Shown here in pieces: positions 5,792 to 24,145 of a stretch of 64,000 bases of DNA. The number at the start of each line of letters is the position of its first letter. The stretch's first letter is position 1. The stretch covers positions 89,016 through 153,015 of the forward strand of contig JAAZMP010000098.1 in assembly GCA_012798755.1 (NCBI GenBank). Reading direction: 5' to 3'. This stretch comes from Bacillota bacterium (GTDB lineage: Bacteria; Bacillota; Dethiobacteria; DTU022; UBA8154). The notes beneath the pieces are model-generated. The model saw nothing but the letters and a program-made list of their open reading frames with translations, was not told the origin of the DNA and searched no databases. The position numbers and the translations under genes were made by a program.

Positions 5792-6595
5792 TTAAGGAGT
5801 TTTATATTCATATTTTCTGTTTTTCAGGCGAATGCGATCTGCAACAAGAGCAATAAATTCGGAATTCGTTGGTTTCCCTTTTTCGGTATTGATTGTGTAA
5901 CCAAAAAATTTTTTAATGACCTCAATGTTATTTCTGGACCAAGCCACTTCTATGGCATGACGAATGGCTCTTTCCACCCTGCTGGGGGTAGTATCATATA
6001 TATCCGCAATCCGGGGATAAAGTACTTTAGTGACTGCCCCTAAAAGTTCGATCTCTTTCGCAACCATGGAGATTGCTTCTCGCAAATAAAGATATCCTTT
6101 TATATGAGCAGGAACCCCGACTTCGTGGATTATTTGCGTAATTTCTTCTATGTAATCTTCATTTTCCTTTTTTACGGGAGCGCTTTTTATTATATAAGAT
6201 GATGCCACCTTCTGACTTGGAACCTGAACTTTACCCAGCTGACGAATCCTTTCAGCAAGAATTTCCAAATTAAAAGGTTTTAAAATATAATAGGAAGCAC
6301 CTAATTCTACAGCTTTTTGGGTAATATTTTCGTGTCCAAAAGCTGTCAACATGATTATTTTCGGTTTTGGAGACAAATCCATTCTATTAAGTTCTTCCAA
6401 AACCCCAATTCCATCGAGATGAGGCATGATAATATCTAAAAGGACAATATCAGGTTGTTTTGATTTTATCAGCTCAAGAGTTTCCTTACCGTTATAAGCA
6501 TTTCCAACCACCTCCAGATCCTCTTCTTTACTTAGATACTCAGTTAATAATTCATTAAATTCGCGATTGTCATCAGCCACCAAGATGTTCAGCAT
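5792..6595 (-). CDS. spo0A: Stage 0 sporulation protein A, master sporulation response regulator
   Basis: Receiver domain [13 protein letters not shown]...[14 protein letters not shown] plus the Spo0A-specific C-terminal DNA-binding domain ([18 protein letters not shown]). Conserved spoIVB-spo0A synteny. Confidence 0.95.
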
Positions 6596-6638
6596 TTTAA
6601 AAAAAGCCTCCCTTTGTTAGGTATTCACCTTATAATTA

Positions 6639-6645
6639 TTCGACA
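6639..6645 (-). promoter_or_regulatory. Candidate 0A box (TGTCGAA) inside a sigma-H-like promoter upstream of spo0A
   Basis: Minus strand reads AAGGAATT-acttaccaatt-GTCGAAT about 45 nt upstream of the spo0A start codon. TGTCGAA matches the Spo0A box consensus TGNCGAA and overlaps a sigma-H-type -10 (GAAT). Confidence 0.45.
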
Positions 6646-6706
6646 ATTGGTAAGTAATTCCTTCTTTTTTATAAAATATAATTTAAAATAGTTACAACTA
6701 TGTGAA

Positions 6707-8071
6707 TTATGTTTTTAAAAAGCCGGAAATTAGTTCCATTTCTTTTACCATCCACTCAGCATAAATTCCGTATCCTCTGGTGGGATCATTTACAAACACA
6801 TGCGTTACCGCTCCCACAAGGCGGCCATTTTGAATGATGGGGCTACCGCTCATCCCTTGTATAATGCCTCCGGTGATTCTTAGCAAATTTTCATCTACAA
6901 CCCTTATAATCATCCCTTTATCAACAGGTTTGTTCTGATTGGTGATTTTTTCTATTTCGATCTTAAAACTTTGAATCGTGTTTCCTTCAATTACCGTAAG
7001 AATTTCCGCGGGTCCTGTTTCAACCTGAAAAGCCAGGCCTAAAGGAATGGCATCCGGATAGGGCGTAGCACATTTTTCGATATTTCTGATCCTGCCGTAG
7101 ATGCCAAAATTCGTGTTTTTATTGATTGTTCCCAGTATATCTTTTCCCGTTCTGAAAATACCTGCTTTTTCTCCCGGTTGTCCCCTTTCAGCTATTTTAA
7201 CATTGATGATATCAGCCCTTACAATGAGACCTTCATTGATCTCCAACGCTTTATTTGTATCAATATCCGTGATGATATGCCCCAAAGCTCCATAACATTT
7301 CTTTTCATTATCGAAAAAAGTCAAGGTGCCTACTCCTGCAGCCGTATCCCTGATATATAATCCTATTCTTTTTTCATGGCTGTTAGGGCACAAATAAGGT
7401 GTTATCTTTATCTTAAGTACTTCACCGTTTCTGTTTACAGTAAAAATTAGGGGCCCTTTTCCGGATTCAGTTTTGATGATTTCCGCAGCCGTGTCGATAT
7501 CCCTGATTTTTTGTTCGTTGATGGCTGCAACGACATCACCGATTAACACACCACTTTCTTCAGCAGGTGAAAAAAACCCTTTCCCTTTTTCAAGATAAAA
7601 ATACCCTGCAACGATTACACCTTTTTCATGAAGTTTTATGCCGATAGAATGGCCACCCGGAATTAAACGCATTTCCGGTAAAACATCAACGGTAAGCTGC
7701 CTTATTGGTATTAGGCCTTTAAAAAGGCTTAACTCCAGATTTACACTGCCTTTACTCAAACCCTGAAGGGAAATACCTTTCTGGAAAGCCAAACGATTAT
7801 ATTCATCGCAATTTATAGGGTTACCGTTAAGATTTAAAATGCCTTCCTTGTCAGCCCTGATATAAAGATTTAAGGGGAACTTTAGATCAAAGTTTTGTTC
7901 GTCCCCTTCAAAAAGACGAAGGTTTTTATCGAAACCGGCATTTATTTGAAAGTAAAGCAAAACAGCAAATAGTAATATAAAAGCCACCAAGAGGAAAAAT
8001 ATGTTTCTGTTCCTACTGTAATTGCGCATGAATATATAACCTCCCAAGGGCATGAAAATTTTTAAGAGCAA
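6707..8071 (-). CDS. spoIVB: SpoIVB peptidase (S55), the sporulation signalling serine protease
   Basis: PDZ and S55 protease domains. It lies immediately upstream of spo0A, as in B. subtilis. The true start may be the internal MRNYSRN at about 8029. Confidence 0.9.
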   Translation of the reverse strand: MLLKIFMPLGGYIFMRNYSRNRNIFFLLVAFILLFAVLLYFQINAGFDKNLRLFEGDEQNFDLKFPLNLYIRADKEGILNLNGNPINCDEYNRLAFQKGISLQGLSKGSVNLELSLFKGLIPIRQLTVDVLPEMRLIPGGHSIGIKLHEKGVIVAGYFYLEKGKGFFSPAEESGVLIGDVVAAINEQKIRDIDTAAEIIKTESGKGPLIFTVNRNGEVLKIKITPYLCPNSHEKRIGLYIRDTAAGVGTLTFFDNEKKCYGALGHIITDIDTNKALEINEGLIVRADIINVKIAERGQPGEKAGIFRTGKDILGTINKNTNFGIYGRIRNIEKCATPYPDAIPLGLAFQVETGPAEILTVIEGNTIQSFKIEIEKITNQNKPVDKGMIIRVVDENLLRITGGIIQGMSGSPIIQNGRLVGAVTHVFVNDPTRGYGIYAEWMVKEMELISGFLKT

Positions 8072-14058: not shown

Positions 14059-14634
14059 TTAACCGCGGTTTTTTTTCCAAAAGCAAATCTTTTCCAAAGT
14101 GGCCAAAAGGCGCGCTACGAAAAAAACCACATCCGTAGGCTTGTTGATCGCCAGGGATTTTCCTGCAGCTTTGCCTCCCACCGTTACAGCTGAAATAGTT
14201 CCGGCTGCCAGGATGGTAAAATATATTTCATTTATCCCGGGTGATCTTAAAGACAAATTGATAATAATTACCGTCATTATTACTCCGCTGACTATACCAC
14301 TTATATCACCGATCACATCATTGCAAAAGCTGGCGACTTGATCTGCGTGCCTAACTAAATAGATGCCTGTCTTGGCGCCGTAGATTTTCTTGGAAGCTTT
14401 AGCATGGAAAGGTTTTTCTTCCGCGGCTGTTACTGCTGTACCAATCAAGTCAAAGATGATACCAATCAATATAATAAGAATTAAAAGGATGACTGATATA
14501 ATTACTGAGCGTAAATTGTACAATAATAAACGCGACATCCAAGTGAAAACAACAGCCAAAAAAAAAGTCCAAAGGCTGATAAAAATCGTCCATGATGTTT
14601 TTCGGTTTCTTTTGGCCTGTTTATTATGCTTCAA
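14059..14634 (-). CDS. oapA: OLE-associated protein A (OapA)-like small polytopic membrane protein
   Basis: 191 aa with about 4 TM helices. It uses a TTG start preceded by AAGAGGTG, and sits immediately downstream of the structured noncoding RNA and upstream of dxs, exactly the ole-oapA-dxs arrangement known from Bacillus halodurans. Confidence 0.65.
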   Translation of the reverse strand: MKHNKQAKRNRKTSWTIFISLWTFFLAVVFTWMSRLLLYNLRSVIISVILLILIILIGIIFDLIGTAVTAAEEKPFHAKASKKIYGAKTGIYLVRHADQVASFCNDVIGDISGIVSGVIMTVIIINLSLRSPGINEIYFTILAAGTISAVTVGGKAAGKSLAINKPTDVVFFVARLLATLEKICFWKKNRG

Positions 14635-14659
14635 GCTTTAGACACCTCTTGAAGAACAA

Positions 14660-15234
14660 AAAAGACATAGGTGGTAACTCCATGAGTAAACTTTGCGGCT
14701 TAAGGTCCAGCAGGATTTCCCAAATATCCACCTATCTGTCGCCAGGCAGGCAGTTTCCTTTTAAGGATATTTCTGCCGTGTTGCCACCGGCAAGGCTGGA
14801 TTACCACTCAGACCACACTTTAATCCCCACAGAGTCTCCCTTCGGTGGGAACAGCCTAGGAGTTTTCCCCTATGACACAATATCGCTTCCTATCCTCTTT
14901 TGCAGTGCTGGTTTCCTATAGGCCTAAGCCTTTCTCCCCCAGAACCACTCAAGGCAGGCTACACTGTGCACAGATTTGGCCGCACACAGGTTCCTTTCCT
15001 AAGCCGTAACCTTTTGCCATTAAGCAATGCGTCACCAACTTAGGTCTCCACGAAGGCAGGGTCAACGCCTACATGCCTTTGTAGATCGCCCCATCCCTCT
15101 TAACTCCCAGCACCAACCCCCGACTGGGCTTCGGCAGCCAGCACCAGGAACTTCATCGATGTGCCTTTAACGGATTTTTAGCCCCGTTTTCAAAAGCGCT
15201 TGTGCCAACTAGGATACTGCACCACCTACGTCCC
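14660..15234 (-). ncRNA. ole: OLE (ornate, large, extremophilic) RNA candidate, about 570 nt
   Basis: A 670-nt gap between ispA and the small membrane gene has no ORF of 60 aa or more on the minus strand. It is markedly GC-rich relative to the genome and full of short GC stems and tetraloop hairpins (for example GCCGAAGC and UCCCACCGAAGGGAG on the RNA strand), and repeats GGUGCUGG. It has its own near-consensus promoter (see next feature). The synteny ispA-ole-oapA-dxs-tlyA is diagnostic. Confidence 0.7.
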
Positions 15235-15240
15235 GCATAA

Positions 15241-15269
15241 ATTATAGCATATTCCGATTTTTAACTCAA
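15241..15269 (-). promoter_or_regulatory. Sigma-A promoter of the OLE-like RNA (TTGAGT-17-TGcTATAAT)
   Basis: Minus strand reads TTGAGTtaaaaatcggaataTGcTATAATttatGCGGG: -35 at 15264..15269, extended -10 at 15241..15246. The predicted TSS is near 15234, 70 nt after the ispA stop. Confidence 0.6.
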
Positions 15270-19016: not shown

Positions 19017-20435
19017 TTATAATGTTTGCAGGTAGCGATCCATGGCCCTAGCAGCTTTCTTCCCTGCTCCCATGGCCAAAATAACTGTTGCTGCTCCCGT
19101 GACGATATCACCGCCGGCAAAAATTCCTTTTCGGGAGGTTGCCCCCTCCTCGTCTGTTTTTATTGTATTTTTCCAACCAAGTTCCAAACCGGAAGTAGTT
19201 TGTGGAATAAGCGGGTTGGGGCTGTTGCCAATAGCGATGACTACTGTTTCCACATCAAAAACATATTCGGAACCCTCAATGGGAATTGGACGGGCACGCC
19301 CGGATTCATCGGGTTCACCCAATTCCATTTTGATACATTCCATCCCTTTTACCCAACCATCATCATCACCAAAAATCTTCACAGGGTTGGTCAATAAATT
19401 AAAGATTACGCCCTCTTCTTTAGCATGTTCAATTTCCTCGGCACGTGCCGGCATTTCTTTGTCCGAACGGCGGTAAACAATATGGACTTCTTCAGCACCC
19501 AATCGTAAGGCAGTACGGGCGGAATCCATGGCCACGTTGCCAGCACCGACAACAGCAACTTTTTTGCCAAGTTTGATAGGAGTATCCCAGTCCGGAAACA
19601 AGTAAGCTTTCATTAAGTTGGTTCTGGTCAAAAATTCGTTAGCTGAGTACACCCCATTCAGGTTTTCACCCGGTATGCCCTGGAACTGGGGAAGCCCGGC
19701 ACCAGAACCGATAAATACAGCCTGGAATCCTTCTTCAAACAGCTCGTCTACGGTTATGGTTTTTCCGACAACTACGTTTGTTCTTATCTCCACGCCCAGG
19801 CTGGCGATGTAATCAACCTCACGCTGCAATACCTTTTCCTTGGGCAAACGGAATTCAGGGATCCCATAACGGAGAACCCCTCCGGTGGCATGAAAAGCTT
19901 CAAAGAGTACTACTTCATGACCCATTCTGGCAAGATCACCTGCTGCCGTAAGTCCTGCGGGGCCGGAGCCGACAATGGCCACACGTTTGCCTGTTGATTT
20001 AGGTCTGGGTGGGGTTTCTACACCCTTTTCCAGTTCATAATCTGCTAAAAAGCGTTCCAACCTCCCTATAGCAACAGGCTCCGCTCTTTTGCCCCTTATG
20101 CAAAACGCTTCACACTGAGCTTCCTGGGGACAAACTCTTCCGCAAACCGCCGGGAGGTTGTTTTTTTCTTTAAGTTTTTTAATGCCTTCATCAAATTTTT
20201 TTTCTGCAATAAGTTTAATAAATGCAGGTATATCTACTTCCACAGGACACCCTTCCACACATTCAGCTTTCTTGCACTGGAGACAGCGCGTTGCTTCTTT
20301 AACTGCTGTTTCGGCATCATATCCAAAAGGGACTTCATCAAAATTTTTAATGCGTTCCTTAGGATCTTGCTCAGGCATAGGGTGCTTTTCTTTCATTCTC
20401 CGCAGCTGTCTAACTTGCTCCTTATCCAATGGCAT
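19017..20435 (-). CDS. nfnB: NADH-dependent reduced ferredoxin:NADP+ oxidoreductase large subunit (NfnB/SudA/GltD-like; two [4Fe-4S] clusters plus FAD)
   Basis: 472 aa with N-terminal Cys clusters (CLQCKKAECVEGCP...CGRVCPQEAQCEAFC), then GltD-like FAD/NADPH-binding domains (VAIVGSGPAGL). Confidence 0.85.
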   Translation of the reverse strand: MPLDKEQVRQLRRMKEKHPMPEQDPKERIKNFDEVPFGYDAETAVKEATRCLQCKKAECVEGCPVEVDIPAFIKLIAEKKFDEGIKKLKEKNNLPAVCGRVCPQEAQCEAFCIRGKRAEPVAIGRLERFLADYELEKGVETPPRPKSTGKRVAIVGSGPAGLTAAGDLARMGHEVVLFEAFHATGGVLRYGIPEFRLPKEKVLQREVDYIASLGVEIRTNVVVGKTITVDELFEEGFQAVFIGSGAGLPQFQGIPGENLNGVYSANEFLTRTNLMKAYLFPDWDTPIKLGKKVAVVGAGNVAMDSARTALRLGAEEVHIVYRRSDKEMPARAEEIEHAKEEGVIFNLLTNPVKIFGDDDGWVKGMECIKMELGEPDESGRARPIPIEGSEYVFDVETVVIAIGNSPNPLIPQTTSGLELGWKNTIKTDEEGATSRKGIFAGGDIVTGAATVILAMGAGKKAARAMDRYLQTL

Positions 20436-21286
20436 TAATTTCCACCTCCAGATATGCGTTCTTGTTCAAAATTTTCCAGGGCTATCTTTTCTTCTTCGAG
20501 ATATGTGTGGGAACGCCTTGTCAGTTCTTCAAAATCGACTTGGTGAGCATCAAATACAGGGCCATCTACACAGCTAAACTTTGTTTCGCCGCCTACCGTA
20601 ACGCGGCAGCAACCACACATTCCGGTTCCATCTACCATGATCGGGTTTAAGCTAACCAAGGTCTTGACATCATAAGACTTGGTCAGGTTAGAAACAGCCT
20701 GCATCATGGGCAGGGGACCAACAGCAACAATTTCATCGATCTCTTTACCTTTTTCTTCCAGTATATTTTTCAGAACATCTGTTACAAAACCGTGATGGCC
20801 TTTTGTGCCATCATCTGTACATACATGCAGTTCCTTGCTAACAGCACGCATTTCATCCTCAAGGATCAAAAGATCAGCTGTTTGTGCCCCTATGATGGAA
20901 ATGACTTCCATACCGGCATTATGCAATGCTTTCACTTTGGGATAAACAGGGGCAATACCCACTCCGCCTCCCACTGCCACAACCCGACCCGAGGCTGAAG
21001 GAAGTTCCATGGCCTTTCCCAGGGGTCCGACAAAGTCACACAGGTGATCTCCTGCTTCCAGGGTTCCCAACTCTTTCGTTGTTTTGCCCACTTCTTGATA
21101 AATAATAGTGATTGTGCCCTTTTCTTTGTCGCTATCTGCTATGGTGAGAGGAATTCTTTCCCCGTTTTCGTGAACACGCAGAATAATAAACTGGCCCGGC
21201 TCTGCCTTTCGCGCCACCAACGGTGCCTCAACTTCCATAAGTTTATTTACTTCAGATAGTACTTTCTTTGTAACAATTTTGAACAT
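20435..21286 (-). CDS. nfnA: NfnA/SudB-like small subunit (PyrK-type FAD/[2Fe-2S] ferredoxin-NADP reductase)
   Basis: 283 aa PyrK-like protein with a C-terminal Cys cluster (MCGCCRV...FSCVDGPVF). It overlaps the nfnB start by one base, giving the nfnA-nfnB order. Confidence 0.85.
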   Translation of the reverse strand: MFKIVTKKVLSEVNKLMEVEAPLVARKAEPGQFIILRVHENGERIPLTIADSDKEKGTITIIYQEVGKTTKELGTLEAGDHLCDFVGPLGKAMELPSASGRVVAVGGGVGIAPVYPKVKALHNAGMEVISIIGAQTADLLILEDEMRAVSKELHVCTDDGTKGHHGFVTDVLKNILEEKGKEIDEIVAVGPLPMMQAVSNLTKSYDVKTLVSLNPIMVDGTGMCGCCRVTVGGETKFSCVDGPVFDAHQVDFEELTRRSHTYLEEEKIALENFEQERISGGGN

Positions 21287-23091: not shown

Positions 23092-23640
23092 TTAACGAAC
23101 GTTTTTCTTTATTATTTCCTGTGCTATATCTTCAATCAAAATTTTTATTTCAGCCACGCCCGATCCACATATTTCCTCAACATAATCTTTAACAGTAGCC
23201 TGCAATTTGCTTGTCAGTTCAGGAATAACAATATCAGGGAGAACCTTGATCCGCAGGTAGATAACCAAACCTTGCTCGGTGTAGCTGATACGCGTACTTA
23301 CCTCCCTGATACCCTTTACTTTTCGAGAAGCAGCCAGAACCATGTTTTCTATGGCTTTGAAAGAAATGCGCACCTCTCCTATTTCTGTAAAACTGACAAT
23401 GGTGCCCCCTTCTTTTCTTTCTGCTGACTGCATAGAAAAAGCCAAAAGAATCACGCCTATGAGCAAAATAACAAAACCTAAAACTGTGTATTGCAAATTT
23501 CCCGTAATGCGATAAAGTTTAAAAACAGAGAAAAGTGCAGTTCCATCAAGGACACCAAGAGTAGCCAAAATTAGAAACACGCTACATAACAAAGCTAAAA
23601 TACCCAGGACAGCAAGTATGAAACGCTTTCCGGCTCCCAT
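23092..23640 (-). CDS. amaP: Alkaline shock response membrane anchor protein AmaP (Asp23 family with an N-terminal TM)
   Basis: 182 aa with an N-terminal TM segment plus an Asp23/Gls24-like domain, adjacent to asp23. Confidence 0.6.
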   Translation of the reverse strand: MGAGKRFILAVLGILALLCSVFLILATLGVLDGTALFSVFKLYRITGNLQYTVLGFVILLIGVILLAFSMQSAERKEGGTIVSFTEIGEVRISFKAIENMVLAASRKVKGIREVSTRISYTEQGLVIYLRIKVLPDIVIPELTSKLQATVKDYVEEICGSGVAEIKILIEDIAQEIIKKNVR

Positions 23641-23758
23641 AGAAACTTATCTCCTTTCCTGCAACATTGAGCATAGGTTGGCAAAAGCCGGCCTCGCTCA
23701 TCCCACACTCAAGATTACTACTGCTTGGGAATAATGTGATCTTTATCTCCGGTGTCCC

Positions 23759-24145
23759 TTATTTTGTTGCCTCTTCGTCGTTTTTTTGTTGTGGAAAGCT
23801 TACTCCTTGTACATGAACATTCACACGTACGACTTTCAAACCGGTCATATTTTCGATCGCCTTTTTTACATTTTCTTGAACCGCCCAAGCTACATCCGGT
23901 ATGCGCGATCCAAAACGAACAATTAAGGACAGGTCCACCCCTGCTTCCTCTTTGCCAACTTCAACTTTTACTCCCTTTGACAGGTTTTTGCGCCCCAAAG
24001 CTTCAGCAAGCCCTCCGACGATGCCTCCACTCATACTTGCTACTCCATCAATTTCTATGGCCGCCAGCCCGGCTATAACCGAAACCACTTCATCGGCTAT
24101 ATGGATTGCTCCAAGTTCTGAAGAAAGACTGCGTTCTTCGTTCAT
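23759..24145 (-). CDS. asp23: Asp23/Gls24 family alkaline shock protein (YqhY-like)
   Basis: 128 aa with an Asp23 fold signature (GVASMSGGIVGGLAEALGRKNLSKGVKVEV), upstream of nusB as yqhY is in B. subtilis. Confidence 0.8.
   Translation of the reverse strand: MNEERSLSSELGAIHIADEVVSVIAGLAAIEIDGVASMSGGIVGGLAEALGRKNLSKGVKVEVGKEEAGVDLSLIVRFGSRIPDVAWAVQENVKKAIENMTGLKVVRVNVHVQGVSFPQQKNDEEATK

Follow-up and report, generated by a model that had tools for sequence, protein, structure and literature searches.

The locus described here lies on the minus strand of a 64,000-nucleotide stretch of contig JAAZMP010000098.1 from a Bacillota bacterium, hereafter called the window. It consists of a gene for OLE RNA, which is known as a large and structured RNA of bacteria acting at the membrane, followed by oapA, the gene for its partner, the membrane protein OapA. 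We consider it a genuine ole-oapA cassette, and a typical syntenic copy of it, with a probability of about 95%. What was observed directly comprises the family identity, fold, and covariation of the RNA, the promoter motif together with its conservation, the hallmarks of OapA, and the linkage of the two genes. The RNA is a new copy of a known class that is well catalogued in Bacillota; OLE has been recorded in 2,846 assemblies (PMC11332333). All positions are those of the window, and features are on the minus strand unless stated otherwise.

Identity, covariation and promoter of the OLE RNA

The RNA gene occupies a gap of 671 bp between the stop codon of ispA (15306) and the TTG start codon of oapA (14634). 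According to the list of open reading frames (ORFs), the minus strand of this gap contains no ORF of at least 50 amino acids (aa). The GC content of the gap is 0.48-0.52, as compared with 0.38-0.46 in the flanks. The coordinates of the GC-rich, ORF-free segment that the original prediction had placed between ispA and dxs hold. A scan of the window with Rfam 15 matched the OLE family (RF01071) at 15241..14655 with a score of 466.2 bits (E-value 1.2e-133), which is well over the gathering threshold of 50 bits. The match spans the full model (positions 1-616) and is not truncated, and this covariance-model check bears out the identification of the element as OLE. No family besides OLE reached the gathering threshold in the whole window, and no tRNA or tmRNA was found in it.

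The consensus structure was projected on the window copy. Its 144 pairs consist of 100 Watson-Crick, 29 G-U, and 15 non-standard pairs, so that 129 of them (90%) are standard; the non-standard ones are grouped at the tips of variable hairpins. For the analysis of covariation, the window copy was aligned with 20 OLEs from named genomes, giving 21 species. In this alignment, 90.6% of the cells form a standard pair, as compared with 39-48% when the 3' partners were slid by 1-3 columns. Compensatory changes, i.e., changes on both sides, were observed in 93 of the 142 pairs, and none of 500 shuffles reached the observed values. Since the projected structure comes from a single row, that of the window copy, it has a slight advantage over the slid controls, but a bias of this size is far too small to account for the margin or for the compensatory changes. 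In the test of the long-range helices P1, P2, and P3, which close the RNA and link its two domains, 26 of 28 pairs were compensatory, and 84.9% of the cells were paired, as compared with 40-52% in the slid controls. P1, P2, and P3/P3.1 are missing from the consensus structure line of Rfam, yet they covary strongly.

A proximal sigma-A-type promoter of ole is located at 15241..15269 and matches the consensus hexamers at 10 of 12 positions. It is composed of a -35 element TTGAGT (15269-15264), a 17-nt spacer, the TG of an extended -10 element (15249-15248), and a -10 element TATAAT (15246-15241). Two promoter-like sites were found in the region, where 2.3 were expected from shuffles, and by itself the motif is therefore weak evidence. 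The ole promoter is credible because it is conserved in place among relatives, and not because of the density of such sites. The identical TTGAGT-17-TGcTATAAT is present at the same position in two related loci (L004 and L005), and a match to at least 9 of the 12 hexamer positions, usually with an extended -10, stands just upstream of the conserved OLE core in 57 of 66 loci. It can thus be said that the promoter originally predicted is real and conserved in relatives. An extended -10 element (TGnTATAAT-like), often with a TTGAGx -35 element, precedes OLE in most of the loci L004-L083, which represent both Bacilli and Clostridia. In many loci, about 15-20 nt separate the end of the promoter from the conserved GUGGUGCAG core.

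The mature OLE RNA is predicted to have 573 nt (14662..15234), since P1 starts at the transcription start site (TSS) predicted from the promoter, 15234, and ends at 14662; both ends are those of the first and last nucleotides of P1. The earlier estimates of a TSS near 15234 and a size of about 570 nt fit this covarying helix. In B. halodurans, the 5' ends of OLE determined by rapid amplification of cDNA ends lie near the start of P1, and the proximal promoter causes a more than 100-fold rise in OLE (PMC3413148). No canonical terminator hairpin was found on the minus strand either between ole and oapA or after oapA. Because there is no terminator-like hairpin before oapA, this gene is probably co-transcribed with the RNA. 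A U-run, CUUUUUUGUU (14655-14664), starts within the final bases of the P1 3' strand and extends to 14655, and the same trait was seen in several relatives (L005, L006, L007, L008, and L014). No hairpin is adjacent to this U-run other than the long-range strands of P1 and P12. The U-run might aid 3'-end formation or pausing upon closure of P1/P12.

The absence of a terminator before oapA bears on a different view of the element, in which it would be a cis-acting leader, riboswitch-like for oapA-dxs, or a 3' untranslated region (UTR) of ispA, and no free-standing RNA would be made. Two points weigh in favour of this view and against a separate OLE RNA: the RNA and the mRNA probably form one primary transcript, and the genes, which all share one strand, are arranged like an operon. 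The sequence, however, matches the full-length OLE model, it is immediately preceded by a dedicated and conserved promoter, and the predicted TSS is the point at which P1 closes the RNA. Moreover, B. halodurans expresses OLE from a promoter of its own, and the RNA accumulates there as one band of high stability (PMC3413148). We judge a leader or UTR to be extremely improbable.

OapA and its linkage to OLE

The gene oapA (14059..14634) encodes a 191-aa helical membrane protein. Its Shine-Dalgarno sequence AGAGGTG (14643..14649) lies 8 nt before the TTG start, and the distance from the end of P1 to this start is 27 nt; the gene is thus directly downstream of ole on the same strand, as in related loci. 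The protein contains the DxxxD motif (D106-V-I-G-D110), which is invariant in 14 of 14 aligned homologues, and the proline P75 is also invariant in the OapA family. Both termini are rich in Lys and Arg. The hydropathy profile showed three clear segments (~17-37, 42-66, and 108-130) and a weaker fourth one. The AlphaFold2 model consists of long helices at residues 2-40, 44-73, 97-130, and 134-164, with a confidence score (pLDDT, predicted local distance difference test) of 75, and it is compatible with four transmembrane helices. No curated model of OapA exists in Pfam or NCBIfam, and NCBIfam gave only a spurious 16-bit match. The sole Pfam similarity is to PF01595 (CNNM), at 21.5 bits against a cut-off of 28.4 bits and therefore sub-threshold. 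Neither database detected CBS or CorC_HlyC domains, and the protein stops at residue 191. OapA proteins have been described as the next-best cluster under true CNNM proteins, from which they are distinguished by DxxxD (PMC11332333).

As judged by these published hallmarks rather than by direct sequence alignment, the 191-aa product resembles OapA of the BH2780 family: it is of about 190 aa, helical and membrane-type, with DxxxD, basic termini, and weak CNNM similarity, and its gene is downstream of ole. Its membership in the OapA family, which was part of the original prediction, is supported by DxxxD, by the weak CNNM match without CBS or CorC domains, and by the position of the gene directly downstream of ole. 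The best identity among the matches listed by a pattern-based search of GTDB species representatives was 65%. The OapA of the window is 100% identical to a hypothetical protein from a metagenome-assembled genome (MAG) of an uncultured 'Firmicutes bacterium'. The identical protein is also encoded on biogas-fermenter metagenome contigs, and the nearest named relatives are Dethiobacter/Dethiobacteria. The contigs identified from biogas reactors belong to GCA_040364275.1, ERZ925066 (run SRR3184554), and ERZ27280802. In the literature on OLE in Dethiobacter, we found only a soda-lake metatranscriptome with OLE reads in bulk (PMC6704655).

The strongest test of the identity of OapA is the family-wide linkage of the two genes. 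At least 80 loci encoding OapA homologues were collected from GTDB species representatives. In the 20 loci tested with Rfam, a full OLE was found directly upstream on the same strand in every case, with scores of 449-578 bits. With nhmmer, OLE was found upstream in 75 of 80 loci; three of the 80 had too little upstream DNA to be judged. Overall, OLE lies directly upstream in 77 of 78 assessable loci (the 75 loci found with nhmmer plus L060 and L009). In L009, which was already an nhmmer match, the OLE copy is cut at its 5' end by the contig. A gut MAG of an uncultured Clostridium sp. (L060:2005-2485) carries a strongly reduced OLE of 481 nt (211 bits) upstream of oapA, and it probably corresponds to the published reduced variants. 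In an uncultured Bacilli MAG from the human gut (L046), neither nhmmer nor Rfam detected OLE in the 2.5-kb upstream flank. This is the sole such case among the 78 assessable loci; the MAG may have lost OLE or may carry it at another site.

The similarity to CNNM has to be weighed against OapA identity, since the 191-aa protein might in principle be a truncated Mg2+ exporter of the MpfA/CorC type that stands beside OLE by chance. CNNM is the only Pfam similarity of the protein, and some databases label homologues as 'CBS domain containing-hemolysin-like protein' or 'CNNM domain-containing protein'. In addition, the AlphaFold2 model may resemble CorB and CorC in its transmembrane fold (7m1u, 7cfg). 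When solved structures were searched with a profile of the OapA alignment, nothing meaningful emerged; the best match was an unrelated chain (E-value 0.23). A modelled likeness to the transmembrane domains of MpfA/CorB/CorC would agree with a published proposal in which OapA is distantly related to CNNM proteins and is a putative transporter of divalent ions. The protein of the window differs from MpfA/CorB/CorC in lacking the CBS pair and CorC_HlyC, in its sub-threshold CNNM score, in its invariant DxxxD, which is absent from CNNM domains (PMC11332333), and in its link to an RNA, so it is no member of that group. Furthermore, the whole family is of about 190 aa, and OLE is its upstream neighbour throughout the assessable loci with the single exception given above. 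An MpfA fragment adjacent by chance is excluded by the domain content, DxxxD, and the family-wide linkage to OLE, and we assign it a negligible probability.

The shortened P9 arm

The distance between the conserved flanks of P9 was bimodal over 69 loci, with values of 34-43 nt in nine copies and 71-86 nt in 60. The short group consists of the window copy (40 nt) and eight relatives (L004-L008, L010, L011, and L062), namely, seven Dethiobacteria-like or 'Syntrophomonadaceae'-labelled MAGs and a Thermovenabulum MAG. In the long group, a central palindrome was present in 58 of 60 copies (GGCC in 57 and AGCT in 1). Cryo-electron microscopy (cryo-EM) showed that the P9 palindrome forms a symmetric kissing loop between two OLEs, bridge B3 (PMC12286853), and the P9 loop has also been described as a 'fourth dimerization center' that caps an arch of unknown function (PMC12265935). 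The long P9 arch with a GGCC-type kissing loop is absent from the window copy, in which the 39-nt insert of the Rfam model in the P9 region is cut to 4 nt; the arch belongs to the full-length consensus, but the Rfam model does not require it.

What is left of the P9 arm in the window is a 17-nt hairpin, AGGC-UUAG-GCCU, with a 4-bp stem. The distal P9 stem covaries among relatives, as GGC/GCC, as GGGA/UCCC in L004, and as GGU/ACC in L005. Because of this covariation with L004 and L005, GGCC is to be read as stem and not as loop. The 8-nt palindrome UAGGCCUA was considered as a retained kissing loop and rejected, as the relatives form a plain covarying hairpin with non-palindromic loops. One of the relatives, L006, comes from a record titled 'uncultured Desulfovibrionaceae bacterium'; its OLE-oapA is of the Bacillota type and very near that of the window, and the label or the binning is probably wrong.

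The window copy was compared with full-length OLEs, exemplified by those of H. halodurans, Clostridium acetobutylicum, and C. botulinum. It shares with them the full model, P1-P15 with covariation, the loops of P4, P5.1, and P6.1, the junctions J4a/5 and J6/7, the GNRA loop and bulge of P13, and the GCGA loop of P14.1. Its own proximal promoter, the oapA gene directly downstream, and the ispA/dxs neighbourhood are likewise the same. It differs in the length of P9 (~40 nt vs. 71-86 nt), in the lack of the central GGCC palindrome that makes bridge B3, in a P8 at the short end, and in its host, which is an uncultured Dethiobacteria-like biogas MAG and not a cultured extremophile. By its sequence, the window copy looks like the full-length type minus only the P9 arch. 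The structural variation of P9 is minor and partly precedented. The published OLE 'variant 1' has shorter P7, P8, and P9 and often lacks the end of P13 to which OapB binds (Fernando & Breaker 2024; PMC11332333). This variant is common in the TANB77 clade, and the genomes of most of its hosts are described as highly reduced (PMC11332333). The shortened P9 and the shortish P8 of the window copy are similar to this variant. In contrast, the normal P7 and the intact GNRA loop and bulge of P13 set the window copy apart from the published description of variant 1, and the 64-kb window contains sporulation genes and an ordinary housekeeping neighbourhood.

The window OLE and its eight relatives could form a distinct natural subtype that is full-length otherwise and lacks the P9 arch and its kissing loop, with a fourth dimer contact that is dispensable or with a different assembly. 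We propose this tentatively, at slightly less than even odds. If it is true, the fourth dimer contact would be dispensable in bacteria that do not look like reduced symbionts, as sporulation and housekeeping genes are seen; alternatively, the RNA would form a looser dimer, a monomer, or another higher-order lattice with OapA. With its naturally 'minimal P9' and all other conserved elements retained, the OLE of this spore-forming anaerobe could serve to test whether dimerisation, membrane assembly, or function depends on the P9 arch and its kissing loop.

A short P9 could also mark a loss of function, as has been proposed for gut symbionts with shrunken genomes, and the window copy would then be a decaying, non-functional remnant of OLE. 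The half-length P9, the missing kissing loop, and a score of 466 bits, at the low end of the 449-578 range of the 20 loci, count against an intact cassette. Decay is nevertheless a very unlikely explanation. Nine out of every ten consensus pairs form, and all columns that are invariant in the 21-species alignment are kept, which follows by definition from the window copy being one of its rows. The promoter and oapA are intact and conserved, and spo0A, spoIVB, and a full housekeeping neighbourhood indicate that the genome is not obviously reduced. The short P9 is common to nine distinct lineages in which the stems, including the distal P9 hairpin, are still compensating; because the short-P9 stems keep compensatory change, continuing selection is indicated.

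Helical elements, proposed working and neighbourhood

The helices of this genuine OLE copy are described in their order along the RNA, with OLE positions counted from 15241. The 5' strand of P1, GGGACGUAGGUGG (15222..15234, OLE 8-20), pairs with the 3' strand CCACCUAUGUCUU (14662..14674, OLE 568-580), and 12 of 13 pairs are compensatory in the 21 species. The 5' strand of P2, CCUAG (15209..15213, OLE 29-33), pairs with CUAGG (14859..14855, OLE 383-387) and has a palindromic CUAG core. Over 69 loci, the variable P2 pair was U-A in 51, C-G in 14, and U-G in 4, and no locus had it unpaired. Palindromes to which OapA binds have been located 'in or near P2 and P4a' (PMC12265935), and by analogy the CUAG element of P2 may be such a site. 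The 5' strand of P3/P3.1 (15192..15207, OLE 35-50) pairs with 14890..14873 (OLE 352-369). This helix of 15 bp with an internal loop encloses domain 1 (P4-P9), and both partners have changed in 14 of its 15 pairs. The published model proposes that P3 spans the membrane (PMC12265935).

In domain 1, the P4 hairpin (15169..15188) is 99% paired (helix 1 of the covariation count) and carries the A-rich loop CUAAAAAU (15182-15175), with A64-A67 invariant in the 21-species alignment. This loop is known as an A-A dimer contact (PMC12286853, PMC12265935). The strand CACAUCGAUGAAG (15164-15152), located 5' of P5, corresponds to the kink-turn (k-turn) strand of J4a/5, to which a k-turn and the OapC site were assigned (PMC9723947, PMC12286853); like the P5.1 loop, it consists of invariant columns. 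The long helix P5/P5.1 (15104..15150, helix 2) is 94% paired, and its loop is GCCCA (15129-15125). P6/P6.1 (15052..15099, helices 3 and 4) has the loop AAGGCA (15079-15074) and is directly followed by the k-turn strand GUGGAGA of J6/7 (15051-15045). In the dimer, the P6.1 loop of one RNA complements and kisses the P5.1 loop of the other (PMC12265935). The three dimer-contact loops, CUAAAAAU, GCCCA, and AAGGCA, are in invariant or near-invariant columns. The variable hairpin P7 (15000..15044, helix 5) is of ordinary length; a manual count gave about 50 nt between the flanking anchors, as compared with group medians of 48-49 nt. P8 (14964..14989), with 20 nt against a median of 27 nt, is among the shortest in the family, and P9 spans 14893..14955 with its minimal distal hairpin at 14933-14917.

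Domain 2 (14676..14870) comprises P10 (14870-14860), P11 (14850-14837), and P12-P15 (14836-14676), and its helices 10-17 are 82-100% paired and mostly compensatory. P13 (14773..14793) is the predicted OapB-binding hairpin, with 5 bp, a bulged G (14788), 3 bp, and the GNRA tetraloop GCAA (14784-14781). OapB needs a GNRA loop and a one-nucleotide bulge in P13 (PMC7936274), and the sequence of the window copy would provide both. The GCGA loop of P14.1 (14742-14739) is retained as well. The dense local stems noticed earlier were real in part: UCCC-ACCGAA-GGGA is a true hairpin (P11), while GCCGAAGC does not form a stem of its own, and the CCGA within it pairs with the UCGG on the other side of the conserved P5.1 loop, GCCCA. 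Likewise, the supposedly repeated GGUGCUGG reflects the two strands, both rich in G-U, of one long helix, P5, and not an independent repeat.

In the proposed working of the cassette, the promoter at 15269-15241 would drive the synthesis of an OLE RNA of about 573 nt (15234..14662) closed by P1, and transcription would most likely run on through oapA (14634..14059) and might reach dxs. From what is known of Halalkalibacterium halodurans and from the cryo-EM structures of Clostridium, the RNA is expected to fold into two domains linked by the long P3 helix. OapA, a putative CNNM-like transporter of divalent cations, would recruit OLE to the membrane. OapA is reported to bind OLE cooperatively and to localise the RNA to the membrane, as judged by biochemical and imaging assays that include co-expression in E. 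coli (Block et al. 2011, as cited in PMC12265935). P13 would be bound by OapB, and the k-turn next to P5 by OapC. If the window OLE dimerises, it would rely on the three kept contacts, i.e., the A-rich loop of P4 and two P5.1-P6.1 loop pairs. With the OLE particle, the cell would better withstand alcohol, cold, and excess Mg2+ and would cope with poor carbon sources; this might work through modulation of an ion pathway of the CNNM type. What is said here of the abundance of the RNA, its place at the membrane, its dimers, its binding of proteins, and its physiology is carried over from other species (PMC3413148, PMC7936274, PMC9723947, PMC12286853, PMC12265935). The locus says nothing new about the function of OLE, and its modest value is for comparison. 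It confirms the occurrence of OLE-OapA in biogas-reactor organisms, whose alcohol- and solvent-rich habitat fits the known alcohol-tolerance phenotype.

The gene order was determined with Pfam and NCBIfam. All genes are on the minus strand, in the order nusB, a TsaD-like gene, an NfnAB-like pair, folD, xseA, xseB, and ispA, and after the RNA and the 191-aa protein it continues with dxs, tlyA, nadK, recN, spoIVB, and spo0A. The arrangement xseA-xseB-ispA-[RNA]-[membrane protein]-dxs-tlyA, on which the original prediction relied, was confirmed. The sporulation genes spo0A and spoIVB are located downstream at 5792-8071, and two genes of the Asp23 family lie upstream beside nusB (23092-24145). Judging by these genes, the host is probably spore-forming; sporulation genes are said to correlate with OLE (PMC11332333). 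As a Bacillota MAG with Dethiobacteria relatives and with spo0A and spoIVB, the host is of the type expected for OLE, a Bacillota anaerobe or extremophile.

An antisense ORF of 109 aa on the plus strand (14592..14921) runs across OLE and the start of oapA. It is mechanical in origin and no evidence for a gene; gene finders could miscall such a protein inside a structured RNA gene. The NfnAB-like pair is located between folD and the TsaD-like gene (19017-21286). One of its proteins, of 472 aa, contains the domains Fer4_20 and Pyr_redox_2, and the other, of 283 aa, contains DHODB_Fe-S_bind and NAD_binding_1. The presence of this pair is consistent with an anaerobic lifestyle.

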